Program-made: the position numbers and the translations under genes | Source of the DNA: a virus | Taxonomy: Duplodnaviria; Caudoviricetes | IMG/VR virus record: IMGVR_UViG_3300025018_000018 | Location: 1 to 52,349 of that record | DNA length: 52,349 nucleotides | Strand: one strand, 5' to 3' | The notes under the pieces: model-generated | The model's input: only the letters and a program-made list of their open reading frames with translations | What the model was told of the DNA's origin: nothing | Databases searched by the model: none | Shown here: positions 2,940 through 40,212 of the stretch, piece by piece | Numbering within the stretch: the first letter of the stretch is position 1 | How the letters are laid out: the number at the start of each line of letters is the position of its first letter

Positions 2940-4424
2940 ATGTTTAACGCAAATTTTTATCCCACACCATCCGCACTTGTTCACAAAATGATTGCACCGT
3001 TCAAAAAACAATTTGGCGGCAGGGATTATCTGTCAGGGTATCGTACCATCCTAGAGCCGTCCGCAGGCAAGGGCGATATTGCCGATGTCCTGGTTGACGA
3101 TTGCTACATCAAAAAGGATCAAATATCCTGCATCGAAATTGAGCCAGAACTCCGCATGATCCTGCAAGGCAAAGGCTATGCCGTGATCGAAACGGACTTC
3201 CTCGCCTACGCAGATCGGTTGATCTTTGATCTCATCATCATGAACCCCCCATTTGATACTGGTGCCGATCATTTGCTCAAAGCGTGGGAAATTTTACAAG
3301 CGGGTGATATTGTCTGCCTACTCAACGCAGAAACAATCCTGAACCCGCATACCGAGAAGCGGCGGCTCCTATGCCGGATCATCTCCGAGCATGGGCGTTA
3401 CGAAGTCATCGGCAACGCCTTTGCTTCCGCAGAGCGCAAAACGGATGTGAATGTGGCAATCGTCTGGTTGCACAAAGATAAGCCTGCATCGCCATTTCCA
3501 GACTTCACACCTACCGGCATGGACTTTGATGCAGAGGTCAAAGAAGAAACCTTTACATCTAACCCAATTGCATCGCGCAATATCGTGGATAGCCTTGTTG
3601 CCCAGTACAACGAAGCCTCACGTATCCTCACAGAGATGGCAACGCTGGAAAAGCAATATCGCTTCTATACCGCCAGCATCATCAAGAAAGATAGCGATGA
3701 GGTTGATAAATCCCTGAACGAAAAGCTCACCGAACTAAAAAAACGCTTCTGGATGTATATCTTTCAGAAGACCAACTTAGGCAAAGTGACGACCTCAAAT
3801 TTTAGACAGAAGTTTGAAGACTTCAGCACCAGCACGCAGCGGCTTAGCTTCACGGTTGCTAATGTCATGGAAGTTTTAGAGATGTTCTTTTTCAATCACG
3901 ATGCCATCATGCAGGATTGCATTGAAGCGGTGTTCAAAAAGGCAACCAGCTACCACGAGAAAAACAAAGTGCATGTCGAAGGTTGGAAGACGAATAAGAG
4001 CTACCGCGTCAACAAGAAGATTATCGTCCCATACGGCATTAAATACGATCAATTTGGGTTTGCGCTGACCTTTATGTACAGCACCAAAGATTTCTACGAT
4101 GACCTGGATAAAGCATTGTGTTTCTTAACAGGTCGCAAGCTGGATGCCATTACGACCATTCAGAGCGCGATTGAACGCCACATTGGTCATAAACCAAGCT
4201 ATCGCGAAGGCGACTATGAAGGCGCGACTTTTGAGGAGCGTTACGACAAATACAAGGCGGCGCACCATGTCCGTGAATGGGATGAAGTCTTCCCCTCTGA
4301 GTTCTTCAACATCCGCATTTTTAAGAAGGGTACGGTCCATCTTACCTTCCGTGATCCAGAACACTGTGCATTGCTCAATATAGCCGCCTCACAAGGCAAG
4401 AAAGAAGTGGGCGGCGGGTACTAA
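2940..4424 (+). CDS. SAM-dependent DNA amino-methyltransferase with DUF4942-like C-terminus
   Basis: FYPTP; LEPSAGKG (motif I); MNPPF (motif IV); GWKTN and FKKGTVHLTF C-terminal motifs. Confidence 0.9.
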   Translation: MFNANFYPTPSALVHKMIAPFKKQFGGRDYLSGYRTILEPSAGKGDIADVLVDDCYIKKDQISCIEIEPELRMILQGKGYAVIETDFLAYADRLIFDLIIMNPPFDTGADHLLKAWEILQAGDIVCLLNAETILNPHTEKRRLLCRIISEHGRYEVIGNAFASAERKTDVNVAIVWLHKDKPASPFPDFTPTGMDFDAEVKEETFTSNPIASRNIVDSLVAQYNEASRILTEMATLEKQYRFYTASIIKKDSDEVDKSLNEKLTELKKRFWMYIFQKTNLGKVTTSNFRQKFEDFSTSTQRLSFTVANVMEVLEMFFFNHDAIMQDCIEAVFKKATSYHEKNKVHVEGWKTNKSYRVNKKIIVPYGIKYDQFGFALTFMYSTKDFYDDLDKALCFLTGRKLDAITTIQSAIERHIGHKPSYREGDYEGATFEERYDKYKAAHHVREWDEVFPSEFFNIRIFKKGTVHLTFRDPEHCALLNIAASQGKKEVGGGY

Positions 4425-4441
4425 TCTTAACACTTTATAGA

Positions 4442-4470
4442 TTGACAGTATACGATTATACGTATACAAT
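4442..4470 (+). promoter_or_regulatory. Sigma70-type promoter overlapped by two GTATAC operators
   Basis: TTGACA-17 bp-TACAAT; GTATACGATT and CGTATACAAT lie within it. Confidence 0.8.
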
Positions 4471-4506
4471 CTATAGTATAGTTTAAGCACTTAAGAGGGT
4501 AACAAA

Positions 4507-4707
4507 ATGGCTCAAATTGAAAATACAAAATGTTTATGCTGCGGTCACGAGATGGGGCAGAAGCTCCAGCAACTCCCGCGCATGACCGTGACAATGGTCA
4601 CCTGTAAAAATCCGGCGTGCATCATGCACGAACAAACACTCACAACCGATAGTAACAACCCTGAGCATGTAGACTTCTGTCGCCAGGGCTTAGTGAAAGC
4701 AGGGTAG
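4507..4707 (+). CDS. Small zinc-ribbon-like protein
   Basis: CLCCG and CKNPAC motifs; RBS GAGGG. Confidence 0.7.
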   Translation: MAQIENTKCLCCGHEMGQKLQQLPRMTVTMVTCKNPACIMHEQTLTTDSNNPEHVDFCRQGLVKAG

Positions 4708-4711
4708 GGCG

Positions 4712-5659
4712 ATGCCATTCCAACTATTAAAAGACGCATACGAAAAATATGAAGCAATTGAAGCGGAAAAAGACGCGGCACGCCGCGCCAAATATCAGAC
4801 AGAACAAAAAGAGCAACGGCGAATTTATGTAGCAAACATCATCAATGTGATGTCTAAATTTTTTGGTGAGGAAATCACCGAAGATCAGATTAGTGATACT
4901 GACCGTGTGTCAATTGGCAATATTGGCATCCAGTTTCACTCGGCAGGCGGAACTTACTTTTCAGCGCAGACTTATAAGCTAGATGACAACGGTAAGCAAA
5001 ATAGTAGAAGCATTCCTATCAACGCATCATGGTCATCAAGTAGACCCCTTATTGATGCCCAACACGATGCATGGGAAGCGTTGCAACGCTTAGATGATTT
5101 TGAGGCTGATGAAGCACCGGAAACATCCGTTGATATTGATTATGGCGAGGCAATCTTTGCCCCCATCAGAGGGCTACGGATGGTGTTAAGCCAAATCACC
5201 GACGAGCTTGGCAACTACCAGGATGACTACATCACAATTTTCACATATGACGATTACGGATACAGAAGATGGTGGAAGGTTTCTGTCAACGATATGTACG
5301 TTTTCAGAATGTGCGAAAACGGCTATGAAGATCAATTCATCTATCGTCAGGGCGCATGGGAAGATTACGTGCGGGATCTCTATAAGATTGTCGAGGAACG
5401 CCGCAAGGAACGCGATCAAGCGCACTCCGAGGAGCAAGCAGCCTATGAAGCGTCACGGTTTGCTCCACTGGACATCAAGCCGAACATCTCAGCCTCCGAA
5501 GGGCTGGCAAAGTTTGAGGCGTTCGCTGCTGTTGAAAAGGAGATAGAACGCGAATACGGTGGTGGAACAGCACAATTGTACTCACCTGCTGAGGCAATGG
5601 TCGCAGCATTGGGTCAAATGATTGATGCCAAAATCAATCAAACTATGGAGCCGTACTAA
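4712..5659 (+). CDS. Hypothetical protein
   Basis: 315-aa ORF, tightly packed in the operon. Confidence 0.8.
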   Translation: MPFQLLKDAYEKYEAIEAEKDAARRAKYQTEQKEQRRIYVANIINVMSKFFGEEITEDQISDTDRVSIGNIGIQFHSAGGTYFSAQTYKLDDNGKQNSRSIPINASWSSSRPLIDAQHDAWEALQRLDDFEADEAPETSVDIDYGEAIFAPIRGLRMVLSQITDELGNYQDDYITIFTYDDYGYRRWWKVSVNDMYVFRMCENGYEDQFIYRQGAWEDYVRDLYKIVEERRKERDQAHSEEQAAYEASRFAPLDIKPNISASEGLAKFEAFAAVEKEIEREYGGGTAQLYSPAEAMVAALGQMIDAKINQTMEPY

Positions 5660-7158
5660 TGGGCGCGTTAACCATCCCATTCGGTACACCTAAGCCTGTC
5701 ACTAGACAGGCTTACCGCCCATCATCCGGCGTGTGGCTGTGCTTCGATATACGCCCACCCGATACCGACAATCCGATGCCCAAATGGTGGCATCTCTCAA
5801 CCATCCAACAATTGAACCCAGGAGCAAATCTGATGGATATGCAATCCGTAACCCAAAAATTGGCGGCGCAATCATTGAGTATTCGCCGCATGACATTCTC
5901 ACTAGGTATTTTCGACATGGTGGCATCTGGGGACAAATCATTCGTCGTTTCTCAGGTGCAGGCTGCTGGATATGAAATCATCCAAGACCCTCCACCTGCT
6001 GAGAAGCACACAGAGCAAGGCACAATCACACTGCTTCAATTCAAGCTGCCATCACAGCAAAATATGGTGGATAGCTACATCACGGTCATTCGTCGTATTG
6101 ACGGTGCAGCGCATGTGCAGCAAGGCAAGATTATCAGCATCTCCAACCTAGTTGAGGATCGCGTTTATCTCGCTTTCAAGGATGGCAAACCGATCTGGTA
6201 CGACTTATCCGCTGCCATCACACCAGAGCCGCATGAAAGCCTCTACAGCGTCGAATCACAGTATGGCGTGCATGTGGGGGATGATTGGCTTGCTGAGAAA
6301 AAGAAACAGGCTGAATCAATCACTGACGAAGAAGCCGCACGATTAGAAGCCACCTGGGAAGCCAAGGTTACACAAGAAGAAATCGCCAGCCTTTCGTCTC
6401 CCGATGGCGCACAGCCTATCGACCTGGATGATTATGTAGCAGCCGTGTATCAAGACGAACCACAGATTAAGCAATACAGATGGGGAACGCTGTATGGGGC
6501 TGTAGAAGCCACATACGCCCATATCCCAGGCGATGCCTATACCACTGTGACATTCAAGACAATGCTCAAACATCCTCATTTGAACGATACCAACACCTAC
6601 GAATGGCAGGTGGGCGAGAACTTCATCCCATACGATGAAGAATCCGATGGGTTGTCTGATGCACTCTACTATTTCACAGAACATCCCGATGATGGGGAAG
6701 CTGTCAGTGAAGCAATCCATAATTTTGAACATGCAATCGCAAACCTCATCATCGAACGCCTGGAAGCCGAGCTAACACAGCTTAAGCAGCGCGGAACAAT
6801 TGTTCCCGCACGTGGGGCAGGGCAGATCGTCAGCAGCATTGATGTCATCTATAAGGGTCAATCCGGTGTGATGGAAACCCGCTTTATCCCGAAGTCATCC
6901 CCAAGCCGGACCCGCGTTCGTGATGTGATCCCCGTTTCTCAAACCATCTATCAGAATGTCAATCCGCTTAACGGGCTGACAACGCCGGAACTGGATTTAG
7001 TACCGTCCAGTAGCGAAGCAATAAGTTTTACCGAAGCAATTGGTTTATTACAGGAAGGTAAACTTACTGATGATGAGGTTGCAAAGATTGGCAACGCCGA
7101 GGCACGAAATAACTTTGTATCATCCATGATGTCCCGTCGGGCGGTGCGGCATGACTAA
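5659..7158 (+). CDS. Hypothetical protein
   Basis: 499-aa ORF; TAATG stop/start coupling. Confidence 0.8.
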   Translation: MGALTIPFGTPKPVTRQAYRPSSGVWLCFDIRPPDTDNPMPKWWHLSTIQQLNPGANLMDMQSVTQKLAAQSLSIRRMTFSLGIFDMVASGDKSFVVSQVQAAGYEIIQDPPPAEKHTEQGTITLLQFKLPSQQNMVDSYITVIRRIDGAAHVQQGKIISISNLVEDRVYLAFKDGKPIWYDLSAAITPEPHESLYSVESQYGVHVGDDWLAEKKKQAESITDEEAARLEATWEAKVTQEEIASLSSPDGAQPIDLDDYVAAVYQDEPQIKQYRWGTLYGAVEATYAHIPGDAYTTVTFKTMLKHPHLNDTNTYEWQVGENFIPYDEESDGLSDALYYFTEHPDDGEAVSEAIHNFEHAIANLIIERLEAELTQLKQRGTIVPARGAGQIVSSIDVIYKGQSGVMETRFIPKSSPSRTRVRDVIPVSQTIYQNVNPLNGLTTPELDLVPSSSEAISFTEAIGLLQEGKLTDDEVAKIGNAEARNNFVSSMMSRRAVRHD

Positions 7159-7729
7159 TATCCTCGCCATCAATCCATACAACGACGAAGATCACCAGCG
7201 TATCACCACGATCAACCAGGAAGCAGATACAGCGTTGCAGGCAGCGATGAACGCTGTCCTGCACATCCAACAACTCTATCAGCATATGACCCCTGATGAA
7301 GTCACTTACATGCAGAGGATCGAAGTCGAACTCTCAATGCAGATTAACACCATGAAGCAACTGATGGACGACATGGAGAGCGAAGCAACCGCTAACTTGG
7401 AAAACTATCAGGATATGGTGCGCGTCGCCCAGGACTTCCAGATGCAGCGCGACCTCGCATTATCTGAATTACAAAATGTTGTTGTCAATACCACACGCCA
7501 GCAGCTTCGTGAACGCCTCGCACGTTTCCTGCAAATTGATTATGACCTTGAGCCACGTAAGTCCGAATGGCTGGCAGAGATGTTTATTGGTCAAACATGG
7601 TTTGATACACCATATCGCCTGGATGAAGACCTGCGCGAAGTGCTGCATAAGATTGCAGAAGACTTCTGGCAACAGGCAGCCGAATCACCTGAAATTCTGG
7701 CTTATCACGAAGATGGAGATGCTGAATGA
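7151..7729 (+). CDS. Hypothetical helical protein (paralog of 7726..8307)
   Basis: Shares RVAxxFQxQRD with the next gene. Confidence 0.75.
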   Translation: MTNILAINPYNDEDHQRITTINQEADTALQAAMNAVLHIQQLYQHMTPDEVTYMQRIEVELSMQINTMKQLMDDMESEATANLENYQDMVRVAQDFQMQRDLALSELQNVVVNTTRQQLRERLARFLQIDYDLEPRKSEWLAEMFIGQTWFDTPYRLDEDLREVLHKIAEDFWQQAAESPEILAYHEDGDAE

Positions 7730-8307
7730 ATCCGCAACACGATATTCAAGTCATTCAAACTGACCTATTGGAAGTGGGGCAATTCCCACTGGAAACGCAT
7801 GTATCAGAAGTCAATGATGCACTCAACCGCATTTATTCCTCTGCCCCCCAAGCAGAGGAAGACCTTGCCATTGTTCAGGCGAACACCCGCTATATCGCTG
7901 ATTACACCAAGCATGTAATCGCCTTATCCCAGGCGTTGATGCGTGTCGCGCTCACATTCCAGCAGCAGCGCGACGAATTGGTGAAGGTTCACGCTGATAT
8001 GCGTGAGGCTTTCCAGCGCAATGATAGTAACGACCCATTTGTGCGCCAGATCATGAGCAAACTCTATGATAAGGCGATGGATGAGCATAACGAAGCATTC
8101 TGGGCAAGCCTGCCATACGATATGGCAACCATGCTCGGTGATGATTGGGAACACTGGAACGCGGATACATTGTTTATGGCAATCACCGTTGATGCAAATG
8201 AAGTCGATGAGGATGGGGAATACTTTGGGTTTACCTACGATCAACTAACCGACTTCCGCGAGAAGTTGCTTGTCATGGTTCAGGAACTCATGGGGGAGGG
8301 CGATTAA
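7726..8307 (+). CDS. Hypothetical helical protein (paralog of 7151..7729)
   Basis: Overlaps the previous stop; shared RVAxxFQxQRD motif. Confidence 0.75.
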   Translation: MNPQHDIQVIQTDLLEVGQFPLETHVSEVNDALNRIYSSAPQAEEDLAIVQANTRYIADYTKHVIALSQALMRVALTFQQQRDELVKVHADMREAFQRNDSNDPFVRQIMSKLYDKAMDEHNEAFWASLPYDMATMLGDDWEHWNADTLFMAITVDANEVDEDGEYFGFTYDQLTDFREKLLVMVQELMGEGD

Positions 8308-8799
8308 ATGATCTTTCAACACACATGGCAGCGGGTGCTAGATGGCTCTCAGACGCAGGCGCGGCATATTGCAGGCGCAAATGACATCCCCATCCTCAAC
8401 GCCCAGAATACGATTGATGCAATCGTTGTGAAAGGCGCAAAACGTGCCAAATGGATCACAGGGAACACATATTCTGTGCAGCCAAAAGGCGGGATGAAGG
8501 GCGTTGCACGCATCCAGCTTATGCGCATGTGGCGCGAGGATGTGCGGCAGATCACCTATAAAGACGCACATGCTGAAGGATATTGGGCTTCAGAAGCGTT
8601 TTTAGGTCATTGGGCTGGTATGCACGACAAAGTAGCTTCGCGTGAATTGATGCGCTGCTTAGATGATGGTGGATCAGGTGTAGGACTTGATCCTGAGTTC
8701 GACATAAAAGAGCTACGCTGGTGGGCAAAGAAAGTGTTACCTAATCGCCCCGCGCATCTCTACACAGCATGGGTGCTTGAATTCAAGGTGGTGTCCTAA
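8308..8799 (+). CDS. ASCH/PUA-like domain protein
   Basis: VLDGSQTQAR (GxKTQTR-like) and ARIQLMRMWREDVRQITYKDAHAEGY; ends WVLEFKVV. Confidence 0.75.
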   Translation: MIFQHTWQRVLDGSQTQARHIAGANDIPILNAQNTIDAIVVKGAKRAKWITGNTYSVQPKGGMKGVARIQLMRMWREDVRQITYKDAHAEGYWASEAFLGHWAGMHDKVASRELMRCLDDGGSGVGLDPEFDIKELRWWAKKVLPNRPAHLYTAWVLEFKVVS

Positions 8800-9059
8800 T
8801 GGCGGCATTACCAAAAACAGATGATCTTGTGGATGAGATCGCCGCAGCGGTGGTTAAATCCAAATCACCAAAAAGCAAAATCCCGAAGAATCGCCAAACG
8901 GTTCGGCTGGTGGAAATTGATCGCGCTCAAAACAAGATGCGCGTCATTGAGGCGACCATCACGATCCACGTGGAGCATGACCTCACACCCCAGCGTGATG
9001 CACGTTGGGTACGCGCATTTTATCAAAAGATGGGTTACACAGTGGCGGTGGTGTCATGA
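8799..9059 (+). CDS. Hypothetical protein
   Basis: Coupled start and stop with both neighbours. Confidence 0.7.
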   Translation: MAALPKTDDLVDEIAAAVVKSKSPKSKIPKNRQTVRLVEIDRAQNKMRVIEATITIHVEHDLTPQRDARWVRAFYQKMGYTVAVVS

Positions 9060-9322
9060 ATGACCTACTCAGCTTTGATGTCTCCCGTCATCGGGGTGAA
9101 ATCGGGATGCTAGTGGTGATCGAGCGTATGCTTGAGCAAGCCACCACAGCACGCGCTATGGAAGCATTCGGGCAGCCAGAAGGTAGTCCCGCGTGGGAGC
9201 GTGTGGCGCGATCATCAAACATGCAGATGACCATTCAGAGCATCGTTGACGATACGCGGTTACTCCGCTGCGATGTAGCCGTAATAGGGAAGGGGGCTGG
9301 CGATGCCGAAAGCGCACGCTGA
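9056..9322 (+). CDS. Hypothetical protein
   Basis: ATGA overlap with the previous stop. Confidence 0.65.
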   Translation: MNDLLSFDVSRHRGEIGMLVVIERMLEQATTARAMEAFGQPEGSPAWERVARSSNMQMTIQSIVDDTRLLRCDVAVIGKGAGDAESAR

Positions 9323-9755
9323 TGTCTATCAAATACCTGGATTTAGCCGCTACGAGGTTCGTACAAATATCATTGTGGAAAAGGCTACGGGAAATGAGAT
9401 TGAACCCCGATCCATGCGCGGAAACTATCAATATGTTCACATCACAAATGATAGAAGTATCACACGCACATACAGTTACTTGCGTATTCTAGCTCTAGCG
9501 TATCATGGCTATCACCCACTAGGGCAGGCGTTCTATGCCCATCATTGGGGCGGCGAACTAAATAAAAAAACAGTTGTCTGGCTGCCAGCGCGCACCGTGA
9601 TACGGTTGAGAAAAGGCAAGCTATCACAAAATCACCGACACCAAATCCGAGAGGAATATTGGAATCTGCCTGTAACAATGAAAAAACTGGCAACGCAACA
9701 TGGCGTAAGCCTAGCGACAATTTCCCGCATTATTGCGGAAGGTTATCGGAACTAA
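9303..9755 (+). CDS. NUMOD4-like / degenerate HNH protein with C-terminal HTH
   Basis: YQIPGFSRYEV (NUMOD4-like); LRILALAYHG; eroded HNH segment; KKLATQHGVSLATISRII HTH. Confidence 0.65.
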   Translation: MPKAHADVYQIPGFSRYEVRTNIIVEKATGNEIEPRSMRGNYQYVHITNDRSITRTYSYLRILALAYHGYHPLGQAFYAHHWGGELNKKTVVWLPARTVIRLRKGKLSQNHRHQIREEYWNLPVTMKKLATQHGVSLATISRIIAEGYRN

Positions 9756-9782
9756 GCGAGTTGTTTCAATAGTGTAAAAGCA

Positions 9783-9866
9783 ACACCGCCTCACAGGGAG
9801 AGGCTTTGCACACGCTAACGGCGTGGTGTCAACAAGAGCAAGCGCGGGAGCGTCCCTGTAGCTCCC
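9783..9866 (+). ncRNA. Candidate structured RNA with loop-loop pseudoknot
   Basis: Hairpins GCCTC-ACAGGGA-GAGGC, CACGC-TAACG-GCGTG and GGGAGC-GTCCCTGTA-GCTCCC; loop ACAGGGA is complementary to TCCCTGT in the third loop. Confidence 0.6.
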
Positions 9867-9893
9867 AGCTTTCTAGCAATCAGGAGTTATATC

Positions 9894-10235
9894 ATGGGCA
9901 AGAAATGTGAATACTGTGGGCGGTTCATGAAGTTGTCCGACCTACTTCCAGATGATGATGAATTTGATATTGAACTAGCGATCAAATGCGGATTGCTTCC
10001 AGAAGATGAGCAGGAAGCATATGGCGATTTCGACGGAGAGTGGTCGCGCTTCCGGTTTGTGTATGACCAATGGCACTGTGATAATTGCGATGTTATGGAA
10101 GATCACACACAAGGTAAGCGGTATTACTGGAATGCCGACAGTGGAAATTATGACGCTAATGCACCACTTACGCCTGCGGAGATTGATGCGCTAGAACGCC
10201 AGGCTGCGGGTCAGTTGCCACTATTTGATAAATGA
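9894..10235 (+). CDS. Zinc-finger protein with C-terminal QLPLF clamp-binding-like motif
   Basis: CEYC and CDNC pairs; RBS AGGAG; ends GQLPLFDK. Confidence 0.75.
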   Translation: MGKKCEYCGRFMKLSDLLPDDDEFDIELAIKCGLLPEDEQEAYGDFDGEWSRFRFVYDQWHCDNCDVMEDHTQGKRYYWNADSGNYDANAPLTPAEIDALERQAAGQLPLFDK

Positions 10236-10606
10236 TGACCGCCATCATGCTATTTGACAACTGGAACTACATAGACGATCTCGTATATATTAGCGAGATC
10301 GAAGGGTCAATGTTCTGGATGGAAGACGCAGCCTGGACAGCAGCGCGAAGAATTGGATGGCGTGGGCTGTGGGAGATGCTTCAAGAGTCAGAGGAGAGCG
10401 ACCAGCAAAACGCGATTCTCCAAGCCCTCACATATACCCGATCACGCCTAGCCTCATACATCATCACGCAGATGTATGAGCAGATCATCGACCAATGGTT
10501 TGCAGATGACATCCTAGACTATCTGCGACCACGATGCACCCCGCCGCGTGTCATCTATGGCACGCCACCGGCACAGCCGAAACCCGTACAATTGAGTTTG
10601 TTCTAG
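10232..10606 (+). CDS. Hypothetical protein with terminal QLSLF clamp-binding motif
   Basis: ATGA overlap; ends PKPVQLSLF-stop. Confidence 0.75.
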   Translation: MMTAIMLFDNWNYIDDLVYISEIEGSMFWMEDAAWTAARRIGWRGLWEMLQESEESDQQNAILQALTYTRSRLASYIITQMYEQIIDQWFADDILDYLRPRCTPPRVIYGTPPAQPKPVQLSLF

Positions 10607-10614
10607 GAGCAAAC

Positions 10615-10833
10615 ATGAATAGTCTACAAAACGAATTTGACCAACTTACACCTGAAGCACAAGATGTTTTGATAAAACTGTTTAATGGGCAATCCGCATA
10701 TCCAACACACGCCGCAAAGAAGCAATTGATTGATGGTGAATGGTGTGTGCCACATCCCTATATGGCGTTTGCTTACGGATACGGTGACAAGACAAAAGAA
10801 TTGTTTGATGGATGGAAAGAATCACAGCCATGA
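10615..10833 (+). CDS. Hypothetical protein
   Basis: RBS AGGAG before the ATG at 10615. Confidence 0.7.
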   Translation: MNSLQNEFDQLTPEAQDVLIKLFNGQSAYPTHAAKKQLIDGEWCVPHPYMAFAYGYGDKTKELFDGWKESQP

Positions 10834-11234
10834 ACATAACACTCTACACTGATGGCGCATGTTCGGGTAACAATGGCGGCTGGGCGTTTGTCCTGGTCGC
10901 CACATCGGAAAGTGGGAATGTCATCAAGCAGATCGAAAACTTCGGCGCAGTCGCAGACACAACCAATAACCGCATGGAGATGGTCGCCGTGATTGAGGGC
11001 TTAAACGCCATTACCCGTTCATGCCGCGTGCATATCGTTTCTGATAGCCTCTATGTCATCAACACCATGACGCAGGGGTGGAAGCGCAAAAAGAATCACG
11101 ACCTCTGGCAGCAGCTAGACGCTGCCGTGAGCCGCCATAGCGTCACCTGGGAGCATGTACGAGGGCATCAGGGACACGCCTATAACGAACGCTGTGATGA
11201 ATTAGCAGTCGCAGCTAGGAAGGAACTTGTATGA
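10830..11234 (+). CDS. rnhA: Ribonuclease HI
   Basis: YTDGACSGN, TTNNRMEM, SDSLYV, KNHDLWQQL, WEHVRGHQGHAYNERCDELA; all catalytic acidic residues present. Confidence 0.97.
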   Translation: MNITLYTDGACSGNNGGWAFVLVATSESGNVIKQIENFGAVADTTNNRMEMVAVIEGLNAITRSCRVHIVSDSLYVINTMTQGWKRKKNHDLWQQLDAAVSRHSVTWEHVRGHQGHAYNERCDELAVAARKELV

Positions 11235-12670
11235 CCATCACCATGACCGACTTTTTCTGTTGGGCAGGTGGGACAACGGATGGCGCAATCCGTGTCCCAG
11301 ACGTTGAAGTGAAATACGCAATCAACCACTGGCAACAGGCGATTGATACCCATTCGCTCAATCACCCCCAGGCGGATCACTTTGTCAGCGATATTCAAAC
11401 CACGCCGCCATCGTATTACCCCGCGACGGATATTGCTTGGATGTCACCTTCATGCACGTTCCATTCAAGTGCTAGAGGGGCAAAGATTAAAGGTCGCCAC
11501 CAACTGTCATTCTGGAATGATGAATTTGACCCAGAGGCAGAACGTTCCCGCGCTACCATGCGAGAAGTTGTGGATATGACCGCTTACCATCGCTATAAAT
11601 ACGTGCTGGTGGAGAACGTCGTCAACGTCCGCGATTGGGAATTCTATCATGATTGGTGGGACGCGATGGTCACTCTAGGCTATCAGGGCAAAACGGTCTA
11701 CCTCAACAGCATGTTTTTTGATGTGCCACAATCGCGTGATCGCTGGTATACGGTCTGGTGGCGTAACGATATGCCCGCGCCTGATCTGGATTTCCGTCCG
11801 CGTGCCTACTGCGAACACTGTGATAATCAGGTAAACGCGGTGCAGGTGTGGAAGAATCCAGAGAAACAATATGGCAAATACGGCAGCAGAAATCAGTATC
11901 TCTATCGTTGCCCAGATTGCTATAACCGTGTGCATCCGTTCGTCAATGGCGCGTACACGGTCATTGACTGGACGCTCCACACGCCCACCATCGGCAGTCG
12001 TAAAAAGCCCCTTGTCCCTAAGACAATCGAACGTATCCGGGCAGGACTTGAAAAGCTGCGGCGGCAGGCAATGACCTACCAGTTATCCTACAATGGCAAG
12101 GTGAGAGACTTGAACGATCCCTTGCGGACACAAACCACCCGGCAGGATCAGGCACTCTATCTCTCGCCGTTCGTGATGAGCTACTACACACGAAAGAACA
12201 CAAGTTGGAGTACAGAGCAACCACTCGCCACCATTACATCGCAGAACCGGCACGCCCTTATCGTACCGTACTGGCACACCGTCCCGCCGCGTGGGCTGGA
12301 TCAGCCATTAGGTACGCTCACCGCGTCTGCCACCCACGATTACCTGCTGGATGCCCACCCCGCAATCATGGCGTACTACAACAATGCTGTGATGAAAGAT
12401 GCTCAAGAGCCAATGCCAACGCTCCGCACAAAAGACAGCCACGCGCTCCTGATGTTCCCGCCAGATTTGCAGATTACCAACGAGTTCATCATGGAGTCCG
12501 GATTTAGGATGCTAGAACCGCATGAGCTTCAGCAGGGGATGGCATTTCCTGTCACATATAAGTTTCTGGGCAGCAAGAAAGTCCAGGTTAAATTGATTGG
12601 TAACGCCGTTACACCGCCCGTTGCCACATGGCTGATAGGGCAGGTGGCTAAAGCAATGAAGGGAGCATAA
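11231..12670 (+). CDS. DNA (cytosine-5) methyltransferase
   Basis: DFFCWAGG (I), SPSCT (IV), VENV (VI), QSRDR (VIII), RMLEPHEL and IGNAVTPP (IX/X). Confidence 0.95.
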   Translation: MTITMTDFFCWAGGTTDGAIRVPDVEVKYAINHWQQAIDTHSLNHPQADHFVSDIQTTPPSYYPATDIAWMSPSCTFHSSARGAKIKGRHQLSFWNDEFDPEAERSRATMREVVDMTAYHRYKYVLVENVVNVRDWEFYHDWWDAMVTLGYQGKTVYLNSMFFDVPQSRDRWYTVWWRNDMPAPDLDFRPRAYCEHCDNQVNAVQVWKNPEKQYGKYGSRNQYLYRCPDCYNRVHPFVNGAYTVIDWTLHTPTIGSRKKPLVPKTIERIRAGLEKLRRQAMTYQLSYNGKVRDLNDPLRTQTTRQDQALYLSPFVMSYYTRKNTSWSTEQPLATITSQNRHALIVPYWHTVPPRGLDQPLGTLTASATHDYLLDAHPAIMAYYNNAVMKDAQEPMPTLRTKDSHALLMFPPDLQITNEFIMESGFRMLEPHELQQGMAFPVTYKFLGSKKVQVKLIGNAVTPPVATWLIGQVAKAMKGA

Positions 12671-12671
12671 G

Positions 12672-13214
12672 ATGAAAACCGCCAAACAGATAGAAACAAA
12701 AATCGCACAACTTAAGGAACGCATTTACTGCCTAGAAGAAATCACAAACGCGCCAATGCAAACACCGGGACCATTTGTAACAGGGCGCAGCGGCTATACA
12801 ATGGGCAAACGTCTGGATGCGGAAAATGAACGTAAAGCGAACGCCTTCCGCTTGCTCCAAGCAAACAAGCGCGAACTATCACAATTGGAATCGATCCTCG
12901 CTGGATATTACGCAGGTGAGTGTCATCTGGATGGACGACCATGCGCCAATGCACCGAGCCGCCAGCGGCGTGCCGAGCAACAGAACCTTCGCGCTCAATT
13001 TATGCGTGAACACATCAAGAAAGGGGATACGGTTGCTATTGCAGAAAACCCACGAAACAGCATAACCGTGAAGCGCGTTAACGCAAAAAGCGTTACATCG
13101 TCTGCTGGAACACTATGGCGATATGATGAAATCCTGCTTATGGAAGATGGGCATGTGATGAGCGATGATACATTACGCGCCAAGCTGCAAGCATGGTTTT
13201 CTAACCGATCCTAA
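12672..13214 (+). CDS. Hypothetical protein, possible C-terminal SH3/KOW-like barrel
   Basis: IKKGDTV...TVKRVNAKSVT pattern; RBS GGGAG. Confidence 0.65.
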   Translation: MKTAKQIETKIAQLKERIYCLEEITNAPMQTPGPFVTGRSGYTMGKRLDAENERKANAFRLLQANKRELSQLESILAGYYAGECHLDGRPCANAPSRQRRAEQQNLRAQFMREHIKKGDTVAIAENPRNSITVKRVNAKSVTSSAGTLWRYDEILLMEDGHVMSDDTLRAKLQAWFSNRS

Positions 13215-13267
13215 CCCCAAATGTGTGCATATTTCTGTATAATAAGAGAAAGTAAATTAACAGGAAC

Positions 13268-14233
13268 ATGCACATGCGTTACCTATACCTACTCACGTTT
13301 TTACTACTCCTAGTCATCGCACCAGCCGCAGCCATTCAGGTGAATGGCACAGCCGAGATTGTTGCCTTAACAGATATATCAGGCGACTGTGGTCAATCCC
13401 CCTGGATCTATGATGAATATATCGCAGCCCCCACATCAGGGTTTTATTTTGATGTTGATGTTGCAAATGTTACAGCTACGAATGCAGATCGTATTGATAT
13501 TATGGCACCGGGGCTTATCAATGAGACTGACTGGTTTTGGGTTGTAGTATTCGACGCACTAGGCAACCCAATTGCTGGCAGACGCTGGAATCCTTCAGTT
13601 GGACAAATATGGTTACAAAGTCCTGGATGGGCAGTGGCACTCCCGTTTGTTGGTGGATGGGTAACACCTCAGGCTAAACCGTTTATCATGAAAGTTTATG
13701 ATACTGACGGGACAAATCCTGATCCTGATTGGGTATGGGATGTAATCGCATTCGGCGATATTGCTGTGTCTGCGCCTTTTGATCCCTCGAATGCAAGTGC
13801 TGCCTGTGCCGCACTACCGGAATCTGATCCATACAATTTTACGGTGCAGCCTGTTCCACGCCCTGAAGACGAAGATTCCATTGGCGAAGAAACAGGCTTA
13901 ACCCCATCAGGAACATCATTAGCGATATATACATCAGATGGTGGCAATCAGCTTGATTTCTGGGGTGTTAATGGAGATGCTGAGGGATATTATCTAGCAT
14001 CGCTATCGGCAGCAGAGATACCAGTAGCATCTCCATTAGAAAACACGCTCATCAAATCCAGCGGTGATCTGACCGTGTGGCATCTTAGTACCGGAGAGGT
14101 ACAGGTTAATTGGACGAACGCGCAGGGCAAAACATTCGTCTATGTGTTCGATGACATCCCATATAGCAGCGTGTATAGCTATGTGATTGATCCTAATCCT
14201 GAGCCGGAGGCAACGCCAGAAGTCGGAATGTAA
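13268..14233 (+). CDS. Secreted/surface protein with Sec signal peptide (moron-like cargo)
   Basis: MRYLYLLTFLLLLVIAPAAA signal peptide; own TATAAT upstream and terminator downstream. Confidence 0.8.
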   Translation: MHMRYLYLLTFLLLLVIAPAAAIQVNGTAEIVALTDISGDCGQSPWIYDEYIAAPTSGFYFDVDVANVTATNADRIDIMAPGLINETDWFWVVVFDALGNPIAGRRWNPSVGQIWLQSPGWAVALPFVGGWVTPQAKPFIMKVYDTDGTNPDPDWVWDVIAFGDIAVSAPFDPSNASAACAALPESDPYNFTVQPVPRPEDEDSIGEETGLTPSGTSLAIYTSDGGNQLDFWGVNGDAEGYYLASLSAAEIPVASPLENTLIKSSGDLTVWHLSTGEVQVNWTNAQGKTFVYVFDDIPYSSVYSYVIDPNPEPEATPEVGM

Positions 14234-14253: not shown

Positions 14254-14279
14254 AGACCCCCATTTCCTGGGGGTCTTTT
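14254..14279 (+). terminator. Rho-independent terminator
   Basis: AGACCCC-ATTTCCTG-GGGGTCT followed by TTT. Confidence 0.75.
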
Positions 14280-14354
14280 GATTCTGGCAGGTTGACAGAA
14301 TATTGTATCCGGATTCAACCTCTTTCCTCTCATAATTCTTTAATGTAAAACCCA

Positions 14355-15103: not shown

Positions 15104-15148
15104 ACCGTAGGGGAGAGACATCTCCCCATTTATCATTTAGGAGGAACA

Positions 15149-32696: not shown

Positions 32697-35156
32697 TTAC
32701 ACGCCGATATTATACAGAATTGAGGCATCATCGTTGGATTGCGCGGTAAACGCAAACCGCACGGTTACCGTCAGTTGCCATGAGTCGTAGTAGCTCAGAT
32801 AATCGAAATTCGCAGCGATGCGACGACGATACCCGATATACCAAGACGGACGATGGACGATCAGCAGGCGACCCCGTTCAACAGCATTACCGCCACTGGT
32901 GATCTTGCCATCAGCATCCGCCAGATCAAGCTCATTCGAGATGAACACGGGAATGCCATCAATCACACCAATCTGTCCGTTCATGTTGGTGGCGCGATTG
33001 CCAGCCTTGTCCATTGTCAAGAATTCGTTCATGCCCAGGAGCTTTGCCTCAACCTCCGGATGGGTGATGATTGCTAGGTCAGATACATTCTGCTTGCTGC
33101 GATCCAGAAGGAACCGTGCCTTGCGGATGGCTGCCAGCGTTGGGGCTGCCCCGCTATGATCAGAGGCATTGGCACTCACTGTCACCAATGCGTGCTTAAT
33201 CAGCCCATTCATCGCAAAATACTTGCTAGGGGCAGCCGCGCTACCACCATCAAGGTTGATGTTGTTGCTTGTAGCGGTGTCGCCATTCAGCAGCACATTA
33301 TCAATGCTATTGAGGATGGCACGTTCAGCTTGTTGACGATACAACGGGATTGCGCCAGCAACCGCATCCTCTTCCAATTCGGATGCAATACCCACACGCA
33401 ATGCCAGCTTCTTAGCGGTCAATGTCACCTTTGCTGACCCAACCTTGCTATCTGGAATTGCAGAACCTGAACCAGATAATAACAACTGGTCTTCATTGGT
33501 TGTTTCGCTAACAAAGTATACAGAAGGATCGGTGCCTTCAACGGGCAGTTCATACGGATTGGTGGGCATTTCCATCACATTGAACAATGGGGCAACCACG
33601 TTATCCCGCCGCGCCTTACGCCAAATTTCTTCGCGCCAAGCAGTCGGGACATGCTCATCACCATAGCCGGACTGCGTGGGGTGGTTCAGTTCATTCGCCT
33701 TGACCGCGCCGGACTTAATTGCCCGTGCCAGATGGGTGAGTTGCGGATCGTAGGATTTACCCGCGCTCTGCGGATCGTCTACTTTATGAGCAAATGCCTG
33801 CCAGAAGCCATCCCCAAACGAGATGCCTTTACCGGATGACTGTTGCGCTTTGTTGAGTTCCGCTGCATAGCTAAAATCCTCAACATCCCAATGGTCGTAC
33901 CGCCGATCAACCATGCCAGTTACGCTTGTACCATTCCCGCTTTTCACGTTCGGGCGGCTGTATTCGGCGGGCTGCTGCTTTTCCCATGCTTCACGCTGAG
34001 AGGAGAACGCACCCTTGAGCGCGGATTCTGCCTGCTTCTGCGTCTCAGACCATTTCTTGAACAGCGCAAAGGTCTTCTGAGAAGCCTTCTCCGCCAGTTC
34101 TTCATAGTCCATCTTGTCGGGGTCTTCCGGCATGTTCTGCTTCATGTCGTCCACGACTTCTTCAGTCATGGCAGTAGCATCCGCCGGGGCAACACCGAGT
34201 TCCTTGAGTTGGTCGGCAACGATCTTGCTAATCATCGCCTGTAATTCTTCGGGTGTCATTTCTGCACTCTCCATCATTGTTGATTTGCTTACGTTAACCG
34301 CGTCTGTCGTCTCATCCTGCCCTGCTTCTATAGGCTCTTGGACAGCCTCTCTAAGCAGCAACTCATCAAACGATTTCTGCGAGTGGATTTTGGTTTCAAA
34401 TGGCATTGCAGGCGCAACGGTCAGCGACCCTTCCACCAATGCCCATTCCGCGATACGCCCATCGGGCAGTACCTTGACGCTGTGCGGGATTGCGCCGGAC
34501 GACCACCCAAGCCGACCATCCTTGACCAGCTTCATAATGGCTTCCGCATAGCGATTGCTCATGTCAATCTCCGCTTCGACCCATAGCCCGATGTCGTCCT
34601 GCTTGGCAGAGACGAATGTCCCGACGTTGTGGAACTTCGTACCTTCCTTGAAGCCGTGATTGTAGAGCGTCTTCAGCTTCAGCAAGCCATCTGGTATGTC
34701 GGTAAAGAACTCCGTTTCAGGCGTAAAATACTCACCTTCCAGATCTTTCTTGCTGGCATCGGAATACACCACCAGATACCCGCCCACGCGGTTGCCGCCT
34801 ACTGCCTTGACCGCGCTGCCGAAGTAATATTGTTTGGCATCCATCGCTACACTCTTTTCATCCGTGTTAATCCAGTCATAGCACGCCCAGAACCCTGGGC
34901 TGAACGGGTCTTTTTTCTCATCGCAACTGTGCCGCGTGATAAATGCCTCACGGCTCTCAGGGACATCGCGTTCCATCTGCTCGCCGGGTTGCCCGTAGTG
35001 GACGGTACGTTCATCATCCTGGTAGCGGACGGTGCGTTCGTACTTCTTATCATCCCGGCTGGATGGTCTGCGGCGGGTCGCCTGACACCGCACGCCGTTC
35101 AATTGGTAATCAAAAAAGTCTGCCTTGATAGCAGACTTATCTTGTGTATCGCTCAT
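32697..35156 (-). CDS. Fused HK97-type prohead protease / scaffold / major capsid protein with extra N-terminal domain
   Basis: Protease motifs DLEGEYFT, LYNHG, GLWVEAEI, GWSSGAIP; capsid motifs VTLTAKKLA, IASELEEDA, LLNGD, GQIGVIDGIPV. Confidence 0.92.
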   Translation of the reverse strand: MSDTQDKSAIKADFFDYQLNGVRCQATRRRPSSRDDKKYERTVRYQDDERTVHYGQPGEQMERDVPESREAFITRHSCDEKKDPFSPGFWACYDWINTDEKSVAMDAKQYYFGSAVKAVGGNRVGGYLVVYSDASKKDLEGEYFTPETEFFTDIPDGLLKLKTLYNHGFKEGTKFHNVGTFVSAKQDDIGLWVEAEIDMSNRYAEAIMKLVKDGRLGWSSGAIPHSVKVLPDGRIAEWALVEGSLTVAPAMPFETKIHSQKSFDELLLREAVQEPIEAGQDETTDAVNVSKSTMMESAEMTPEELQAMISKIVADQLKELGVAPADATAMTEEVVDDMKQNMPEDPDKMDYEELAEKASQKTFALFKKWSETQKQAESALKGAFSSQREAWEKQQPAEYSRPNVKSGNGTSVTGMVDRRYDHWDVEDFSYAAELNKAQQSSGKGISFGDGFWQAFAHKVDDPQSAGKSYDPQLTHLARAIKSGAVKANELNHPTQSGYGDEHVPTAWREEIWRKARRDNVVAPLFNVMEMPTNPYELPVEGTDPSVYFVSETTNEDQLLLSGSGSAIPDSKVGSAKVTLTAKKLALRVGIASELEEDAVAGAIPLYRQQAERAILNSIDNVLLNGDTATSNNINLDGGSAAAPSKYFAMNGLIKHALVTVSANASDHSGAAPTLAAIRKARFLLDRSKQNVSDLAIITHPEVEAKLLGMNEFLTMDKAGNRATNMNGQIGVIDGIPVFISNELDLADADGKITSGGNAVERGRLLIVHRPSWYIGYRRRIAANFDYLSYYDSWQLTVTVRFAFTAQSNDDASILYNIGV

Positions 35157-35165
35157 AGTCAACCC

Positions 35166-35378: not shown

Positions 35379-36086
35379 TTACCTCCACAAACTTGGCGAT
35401 GTGGTGTTCGTCACAATCACCCCGCCGCGTATCTGCAACGGATTCCACGCTGCCTCACGTGCCTTACACGTCGGACAATGCTCCGCAATGCCCAGATCCC
35501 AATAGACATCCCAATTGCCTTCACCCGGTAGCTTGACCGGCTTCCATGCGCATTTGCAATTCGTCAGGCATTGGGTTGTCCCATCCCCCGGATAGGCGGG
35601 TAGATCGCCGATGCCTAATGCCTGGGTGTAGGCATTCTGTACCGTGCTGGTGGCGTTGCCGCCATACAGCATCGCCCGGCTGCGGATTGCGTCCGGGTTG
35701 TATTCATCCATGTTTCGTAGCTCATTCGTCCAGTTGTCCAGATAGGACAATTGTTCGTCAACCTTGCGCTGCACCCGCTGCATATCCGCCTGGGTGTAGT
35801 TGCTCAATCCGCCCGCCCCGCTAATGTCAGCGGTCAGGTGCAGGCTTGAGATTTCATCCGCCATACCGTTCCGCCATGCTTGCAGGTCGATGTCTCCATT
35901 GGCGAGTTGTTTCGCCAGTTCATCAGCCCTGCGGGCATAATGATTCAGATAGCGACGATACGCCCGATCCTGGATGCGCGGAACGCGGGTGCGTCGGTCA
36001 AATACATTCGAGATAACACCCCACAGGCGGCGTAATGTCTCACGCCCCCAGGCTTTGGTTGCGGTTGTCTCACACTGCTCGCACAT
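35379..36086 (-). CDS. Minor head / head morphogenesis protein (Mu gpF-like)
   Basis: PAYPGDGTTQCLTNCKC and AEHCPTC; lies after portal. Confidence 0.7.
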   Translation of the reverse strand: MCEQCETTATKAWGRETLRRLWGVISNVFDRRTRVPRIQDRAYRRYLNHYARRADELAKQLANGDIDLQAWRNGMADEISSLHLTADISGAGGLSNYTQADMQRVQRKVDEQLSYLDNWTNELRNMDEYNPDAIRSRAMLYGGNATSTVQNAYTQALGIGDLPAYPGDGTTQCLTNCKCAWKPVKLPGEGNWDVYWDLGIAEHCPTCKAREAAWNPLQIRGGVIVTNTTSPSLWR

Positions 36087-40096: not shown

Positions 40097-40138
40097 CTTC
40101 GCACTGCTATTTTTTTGACTCACATATCCAAAAAAGTG

Positions 40139-40212
40139 CCCCCAGGGCAGGAGTCGAACCTGCTACCTCAGCGTTGATTTAACGCTGCGCTCTACCGTTG
40201 AGCTACCCGTGG
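40139..40212 (-). tRNA. tRNA-like gene with non-canonical 9-nt anticodon loop (isotype undetermined)
   Basis: CCACGGG-TA-GCTC-AACGGTA-GAGC-G-CAGCG-TTAAATCAA-CGCTG-AGGTA-GCAGG-TTCGACT-CCTGC-CCTGGGG-G; no encoded CCA. Confidence 0.8.

Follow-up and report, generated by a model that had tools for sequence, protein, structure and literature searches.

The virus record IMGVR_UViG_3300025018_000018 is a complete phage of 52,349 bp with direct terminal repeats, and this entire stretch of DNA was analysed as the window. PHROG and Pfam matches across the genome identified the virus as a tailed phage. It is a novel orphan, and its nearest known phages are remote, as measured by the percentage identity of DnaB (at most 31%), of the portal (24%) and of a methyltransferase-like ORF (at most 30%). 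A replication block on the plus strand contains a DnaD-like loader, a DnaB-like helicase, methyltransferases and RNase H, and the structural genes for the portal, the large terminase and the major head protein are located on the minus strand. An 821-aa ORF on the minus strand (32697-35162) was matched by phrog_80, a head maturation protease, over residues 163-347 and by phrog_10, a major head protein, over residues 261-754, and may be a fused protease-capsid gene. The phage also has its own tRNA-Ile, whose anticodon AAT is unusual; ARAGORN placed it on the minus strand at 40138-40212, and it was found by Rfam as well.

Within the plus-strand gene block at about 4507-13214, the genes abut or overlap. 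According to the ORF and gap lists, the untranslated intercistronic spacer of 138 nt at 9756..9893 on the plus strand is the sole real gap of more than 60 nt in this block. An apparent gap at 10607-10681 is an artefact of crude gene calling, as an ATG with a Shine-Dalgarno (SD) sequence is present at 10615. Reading by eye revealed a sigma70 consensus promoter, TTGACA-17-TACAAT, elsewhere in the phage at 4442-4470, and canonical U-tract terminators at about 14254-14283 and 15110-15140. When the plus strand of the spacer was scanned, no promoter-like or terminator-like site was found. The spacer is therefore expected to be read through and transcribed within the operon mRNA.

The spacer region of the promoter at 4442-4470 is itself a palindrome of the GTATACGAT type. 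A similar motif, CGTATACGAT, lies at about 2890-2930, before the gene at 2940 and beside the minus-strand ORF 2527-2904. Read by eye, the two motifs look like a repressor-operator pair.

Genes on both sides of the spacer

The upstream ORF (9303..9755, plus strand) encodes a protein of 150 aa that is homing-endonuclease-like, of the HNH/NUMOD4 type, with a C-terminal helix-turn-helix (HTH). In the ESM Atlas, the language-model features of this protein scored 0.95 and 0.93 to HNH_3 and NUMOD4 clusters, and all of its best 10 named matches belonged to one family or clan. The predicted structure gave TM values of 0.56-0.62 to ten HNH_3/NUMOD4 clusters. In Pfam, weak HTH matches alone were obtained at E<=10, with no match to HNH_3 or NUMOD4 at that threshold, and PF13392 found nothing anywhere in the genome at E<=1. 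A word-based search recovered no sequence relatives of the protein beyond itself, no paralogue is present in the genome, and a phmmer search of the neighbouring genes against PDB sequences returned nothing meaningful. The homing-endonuclease label thus comes from a single source, the ESM Atlas features and structure. On these predictions, the protein looks like an HNH/NUMOD4 homing endonuclease, and a divergent or degenerate one since the Pfam HNH_3 model does not match it.

The first 20 nt of this ORF are shared with the end of the ORF before it (9056-9322). A direct repeat with 11 of 12 identical positions, GCGTGGGAGCGT at 9191-9202 and GCGCGGGAGCGT at 9842-9853, brackets the endonuclease-like ORF; we estimate that a stretch of 950 nt would contain about one such repeat by chance.

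The downstream ORF (9894..10235, plus strand) encodes a small protein of 113 aa with two CxxC motifs. The ORF is intact and has an SD and an ATG of its own, and the relatives of the protein begin at the same Met. Among representatives, 63 relatives were found at E<=1e-3, and 27 of these at <=1e-10. They came mostly from Logan, ENA and NCBI assemblies, on contigs of 1-42 kb. The family is unnamed and shares a conserved block, RxYWNP..G.YDA..PLTP, and a conserved C-terminal tail of the QEAAGQLRLF type, which we take to resemble the beta-clamp-binding QLxLF motif. Some relatives carry a Cys-rich N-terminal extension of about 50 aa. The AF2 model of the 113-aa protein reached a pLDDT of 88.9, and comparison of this model with the PDB by Foldseek gave 0 fold matches at E<=0.001. 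The protein had no Pfam or PHROG match. The gene can be described as zinc-ribbon-like.

Several coding explanations of the spacer were tried and rejected. A decayed N-terminal extension of the 113-aa protein was sought with 21 longer relatives by tblastn against 9650-9950, and none matched in the spacer below E 0.03; the one good match of that search (E 2e-7) covers the true start of the 113-aa gene. Read by eye, no in-frame start exists upstream of the ATG at 9894 after the TAA at 9816-18. The sole candidate for a small ORF in the spacer, a TTG-started frame of 34 codons at 9806-9910, is without support. The 3' half of a group I intron was also rejected, as no intron model matched and the downstream gene is complete.

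Hairpins of the spacer, their statistics and the search for relatives

Four hairpins can be drawn in the plus-strand RNA of the spacer. H0 (9760..9784) is a stem of 7 bp, GUUGUUU/AAGCAAC, with an 11-nt loop, a folding energy of -4.3 kcal/mol and pair probabilities of 0.74-0.87, and it is also present in the centroid of the 9750-9900 fold. H1 (9788..9804, -8.1 kcal/mol) consists of GCCUC at 9788-92, the loop ACAGGGA at 9793-99 and GAGGC at 9800-04. H2 (9811..9825, -7.0 kcal/mol) consists of CACGC at 9811-15, the loop UAACG and GCGUG at 9821-25; it appears in all folds, with pair probabilities of 0.56-0.98. H3 (9846..9866, -11.9 kcal/mol, probability 0.84) consists of GGGAGC at 9846-51, a loop at 9852-60 and GCUCCC at 9861-66. 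The H3 loop is GTCCCTGTA as DNA and GUCCCUGUA as RNA. The stems are followed by the tails UUUGCACA (H1) and AGCUUUCU (H3). The loops of H1 and H3 are complementary over exactly 7 nt, ACAGGGA at 9793-99 with UCCCUGU at 9853-59, with no extension beyond these 7 nt, and they form a candidate kissing contact spanning 9793..9859.

The sequence-only reading of this DNA had described H1, H2 and H3, together with the strands ACAC and GTGT, and all were present where it placed them. Inspection of the pairing also bore out its description of the H1 and H3 loops as exact reverse complements over 7 nt. The distance that it gave to the next ribosome-binding site, about 15 nt, agrees with the 15 nt between the end of H3 and AGGAG at 9882-86. 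Its remark that the element lacks a U-tract and is not a terminator is in agreement with the scan of 8500-11000, in which no terminator-like site was found on the plus strand. The junction that it proposed did not stand. The helix ACAC 9783-86/GUGU 9826-29 (9783..9829) is in the sequence and unsupported by folding, with +0.28 kcal/mol when taken alone, a pair probability of 0.00 and a contribution of about 1 kcal/mol in context. It is missing from the MFE structures of both 9750-9900 and 9780-9870, and H0 overlaps its ACAC strand and competes with it. A three-way-junction riboswitch fold was consequently rejected, there being no stable closing helix P1.

The formation of H1 depends on the context. 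H1 is present in the MFE and centroid structures of shorter contexts, and its probability is 0.13 in the 9740-9920 context, which includes downstream coding sequence. The folding predictions thus indicate that H0, H2 and H3 are robust and that H1 is context-dependent.

The stability of the nested fold was compared with that of shuffled sequences. The region 9750-9900 gave a z value of -0.44, with 66 of 200 shuffles as stable, and the core at 9780-9870 gave -1.02 (26 of 200). In a scan of 223 windows of 120 nt across 4400-13300, the window at 9760 had a z of -1.58, against a mean of -0.44 and an sd of 1.2, and at least 12 of the 223 windows reached -2.4 or lower. An RNA on the minus strand was rejected: the fold of that strand of the spacer has a z of -0.68, with 49 of 200 shuffles as stable, and a terminator-like hairpin exists there, but no promoter or minus-strand genes are nearby.

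Stronger folding outliers were seen at other places on the plus strand. The region 10420-10620 had a z of -3.51, with 0 of 200 shuffles as stable, which makes it a stronger outlier than the spacer at 9756-9893, and 10440-10559 reached -4.4. This region includes a 10-bp hairpin, CUCAUACAUC/GAUGUAUGAG, and lies in the 3' part of ORF 10232-10606, close upstream of the SD and ATG (10615) of the next gene. Values of -3.9 to -4.3 were obtained for the region 5600-5800, which lies within ORFs 4712-5659 and 5659-7158 or where they meet. This region also holds the only other loop-loop complement noted in the genome, of 6 nt, between the hairpins at 5619-5636 and 5784-5804.

The frequency of the loop match was determined by scanning the 52 kb for two perfect hairpins of at least 5 bp, with loops of 5-12 nt, at most 150 nt apart and complementary over at least 7 nt. 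The real genome contained 1 such pair, H1 with H3. Dinucleotide shuffles contained 0.10 on average, and at least one was present in 14 of 150 shuffled genomes. The loop match is therefore uncommon and not rare, roughly a one-in-ten event per genome of such size. The rate would be lower if non-coding DNA alone were counted, but the region was picked after the fact. The H1/H3 loop duplex has an energy of -11.2 or -10.3 kcal/mol before any pseudoknot penalty, and as a nested long-range helix the pairing has a probability of at most 0.01. Clusters of at least three hairpins within 80 nt numbered 15 in the real genome and 8.8 +/- 2.8 in 60 shuffles. This excess indicates that some clusters in the genome are probably selected.

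Relatives of the spacer were searched for at the RNA and DNA levels. With Rfam 15 at the gathering score, the sole match in the whole window was the tRNA at 40139-40212, and at E<=10 nothing overlapped 9756-9893 in searches of 9600-10050 and 8700-10300. The view that the element fits no known consensus is therefore upheld as far as Rfam covers it. ARAGORN found no tRNA or tmRNA in the spacer, the tRNA-Ile already mentioned being its only hit. In the phage collection, no related DNA was recovered by blastn or by tblastn with four proteins, including a 499-aa ORF. Viral contigs yielded no relative with four single proteins, one 17-nt pattern and two protein alignments, and metagenome contigs yielded none with one protein alignment and one relative from the 113-aa family. 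Genome contigs were queried with 113-aa-family relatives, a degenerate pattern and RNase H; when the resulting 204 loci were screened with an HMM of the 113-aa family, the window itself was the sole match, and the other loci included two motif-only or marginal cases and one subtilisin-like protease. No related DNA was present in E. coli genomes and plasmids. None of the contigs encoding the 63 relatives of the 113-aa protein was recovered from the DNA collections searched. Within the phage genome, no second copy of the element was found; a shared 12-mer occurs once, at 35902, and no motif is enriched. Counted over the two strands, ACAGGGA/TCCCTGT has 5 occurrences, close to the number expected at random.

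Taken together, the support for a selected structure is weak. The proposal that the element is a riboswitch, a ribozyme or an RNP scaffold is not favoured by what could be tested, since the fold lies within about 1 sd of shuffles, the junction is not predicted, the loop match has a chance rate of about 9%, and no second copy exists. A cis-regulatory role keeps some probability, as the loop duplex would be strong and would affect the exposure of the SD. The hairpins of the spacer match no known RNA family and would not terminate transcription.

Shine-Dalgarno exposure and the competing explanations

The 3' arm of H3 is an anti-SD, a feature absent from the earlier description of the element; its 5' arm is SD-like. 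The downstream gene has the SD AGGAG at 9882-86 and the start codon ATG at 9894-96 (9882..9896 together). In a 9-bp helix, UGUAGCUCC at 9857-65 with GGAGUUAUA at 9883-91 (9857..9891), the 3' arm and part of the loop of H3 pair with the SD region. This SD-burying helix is present in the MFE and centroid structures of 9750-9900, and it replaces H3 in that MFE. It takes up the 3' arm of H3 and 3 nt of the H3 loop, and it excludes both H3 and the loop-loop contact. Its energy is -8.8 kcal/mol and its probability in the 9740-9920 context is 0.12-0.15. Constrained partition functions in 8 context windows placed the difference between H3 and the SD-burying helix at -1.11 to +1.27 kcal/mol. Such near-isoenergetic alternatives are common in RNA and are not evidence of selection. 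The start region from -16 to +3 had a mean unpaired probability of 0.56, compared with 0.43 +/- 0.14 for 62 gene starts, and ranked as the 11th most open. At equilibrium without kissing, the start region is already fairly open. As the two pairings are mutually exclusive, the loop-loop contact, if formed, would tip the balance to H3 and lock the SD open.

The spacer is best explained, with modest confidence, as an ordinary structured intercistronic leader that flanks a mobile endonuclease-like gene and in which the loop match is incidental. According to this explanation, the spacer would be an untranslated leader inside a polycistronic plus-strand mRNA and the 3' flank of a free-standing homing-endonuclease-like gene. 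Translational coupling would be broken at the spacer, and ribosomes would initiate anew on the downstream gene, which has a strong SD of its own. The sole anti-SD nearby, the CUCCC arm of H3, would either stay within H3, with the SD free, or pair with the SD. The hairpins would mainly set the openness of the SD and would at most tune SD exposure or decay. What the analysis directly establishes is a spacer with hairpins, two competing helices of nearly equal energy and a start region that is largely open at equilibrium. We infer three further points: the spacer came with the endonuclease gene or was left by it, translation or the decay of the mRNA is tuned by the hairpins, and the loops match over 7 nt by coincidence. 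A free-standing endonuclease gene offers a simple origin for a non-coding flank. Excerpts of PMC2988022 describe free-standing endonuclease genes of T4-like phages in intergenic spaces, with non-coding flanks and regulatory hairpins linked to ribosome-binding sites. Several points were counted against the ordinary-leader explanation: the 7-nt loop match, of which 0.10 are expected per 52 kb, falls in the operon's sole sizeable spacer, the loop duplex would be strong (-10.3 to -11.2 kcal/mol), hairpin clusters exceed the shuffles genome-wide, and the homing-endonuclease label comes from one source. If the position of the match is counted, its chance origin becomes less comfortable.

A bolder proposal makes the spacer a kissing-loop translational switch. 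Pairing of the H1 loop with that of H3 would lock H3 and keep the anti-SD GCUCCC off the SD, and the gene would be translated; if H1 were not available, for instance through another pairing or a bound factor, translation would fall as the 9-bp anti-SD:SD helix formed. The switch would respond to anything that exposes or engages H1, such as ribosomes on the upstream ORF, a trans factor or the gene's own product. The exact 7-nt match and its duplex energy speak for it. So does the near equality of H3 and the SD-burying helix in all 8 context windows, in which a modest tertiary bonus would decide the outcome, together with the exclusion of the SD-burying helix by the loop contact, which shares 3 nt of the H3 loop with it. 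The sensitivity of H1 to its context, with its low probability when downstream coding sequence is included, would suit a switching hairpin, and the chance rate of the match, 14 of 150 shuffled genomes, is lower for non-coding DNA alone. Against the switch stand the nested-fold z values of -0.4 to -1.6, the unpredicted junction and the lack of an evident ligand- or protein-binding pocket. The pattern was also chosen post hoc from a very large scan, its energies were obtained with a model that is not pseudoknot-aware, and the SD is fairly open at equilibrium even without kissing. A kissing contact that locks the SD open would be a phage translational switch of a previously undescribed kind, and we consider both this mechanism and its novelty rather unlikely. 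The same unremarkable z values and the same 14 of 150 shuffles would be expected if the spacer were neutral DNA, left by the insertion or decay of a mobile endonuclease cassette, with hairpins and loop match arising by coincidence. About 9 hairpin clusters arise per genome by chance, and the upstream ORF is an orphan that resembles a mobile element and is flanked by the 11/12 direct repeat, of which about one is expected. Against neutral DNA, phage genomes are compact and this is the sole sizeable spacer of the block, and three GC-rich hairpins within 79 nt of a given spacer have a chance of about 4% by our own scaling. Neutral DNA overlaps with the ordinary leader and differs from it solely on whether the hairpins matter; we regard it as an unlikely but reasonable account.

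Two further explanations place the function elsewhere. Any RNA hairpin is equally a DNA palindrome, and the three palindromes GCCTC-N7-GAGGC, CACGC-N5-GCGTG and GGGAGC-N9-GCTCCC, with the inverted 7-mers 53 bp apart, could be protein-binding sites in the DNA, such as an operator to which the HTH of the endonuclease-like protein binds, or a junction used in recombination or homing. The upstream protein does end in an HTH, as judged from weak Pfam matches, and operator-like palindromes were read by eye elsewhere in the genome, at 4448-4470 and about 2900-2925. A precedent is I-TevI, which an excerpt of PMC2988022 describes as an autorepressor that binds an operator. This explanation is nevertheless very unlikely: the three palindromes differ from one another, none recurs in the genome, ACAGGGA/TCCCTGT is no more frequent than at random (5 occurrences on both strands), and an operator at this place would have no promoter to act on. 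The least probable account, to which hardly any weight is given, is a leaky terminator or a site of mRNA processing or stability at H1, with UUUG after its stem, or at H3, with AGCUUUCU after its stem, where partial termination, pausing or an exonuclease block would make the two halves of the operon decay differently. At -11.9 kcal/mol, H3 exceeds the other local hairpins in stability, and the sequence after it is weakly rich in U; a weak terminator is associated with the endonuclease gene mobE of T4 in an excerpt of PMC2988022. The hairpins do not have the features of a terminator, while the clear terminators of this phage carry real U-tracts, and there is no continuous dsRNA of at least 20 bp for RNase III.

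The ordinary structured leader therefore remains the preferred explanation, and the significance of the locus depends on the loop contact. A genuine contact would offer a compact, readily tested case of tertiary RNA pairing that holds an SD open, located beside a mobile endonuclease gene in a phage lineage without cultured relatives. More probably the contact does not exist; the spacer is then one more structured intercistronic leader, valuable mainly as a caution. Exact 7-nt loop matches between short hairpins occur by chance about once per ten 52-kb genomes, so findings from single sequences need homologues before they are believed.

Comparison with known systems

Riboswitches of the purine type contain a three-way junction in which the two enclosed hairpins kiss through their loops. 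The element as first drawn was similar, with its closing helix, its pair of hairpins and its contact between loops. In the spacer, however, the kissing partner of H1 would be H3, a hairpin outside the junction. Folding does not predict the closing helix, and no riboswitch model matches.

In packaging RNA of the phi29 type, complementary loops are used for the assembly of a ring. The spacer is similar in that complementary loops are present in one RNA and could pair between molecules. It differs in having no Rfam match and in its setting, as the element lies inside an early or replication operon of a phage that has a large terminase and a portal of the usual kind. Intrinsic terminators share with the spacer the short GC-rich hairpins in an intergenic gap, but the spacer has no U-tract, whereas the phage's own terminators do.

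The translational operator of E. coli rpsO equilibrates between a double hairpin and a pseudoknot, as described in an excerpt of PMC3985624. The likeness is a leader just upstream of the SD in which hairpins exist with or without a tertiary pairing and the balance between these states sets translation. The pseudoknot of rpsO is of the H type and is bound by protein S15, whereas the contact in the spacer would be from hairpin loop to hairpin loop. The rpsO operator has no sequence or Rfam relation to the spacer.

The hairpins that sequester ribosome-binding sites in genes of T4-type phages and in homing-endonuclease genes, described for I-TevI/II/III, segB and mobE in excerpts of PMC2988022, are similar to the spacer in their operon setting beside a homing-endonuclease-like gene. 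They are also similar in their logic, as a local helix can bury the SD and an alternative pairing can free it. Compared with the T4 hairpins as these excerpts present them, the spacer has no late promoter within its hairpin, and its SD-burying helix is of 9 bp and is not dominant. The gene that would be controlled is also a different one: in the T4 cases of these excerpts it is the endonuclease gene itself, and here it is the gene downstream of the endonuclease gene.
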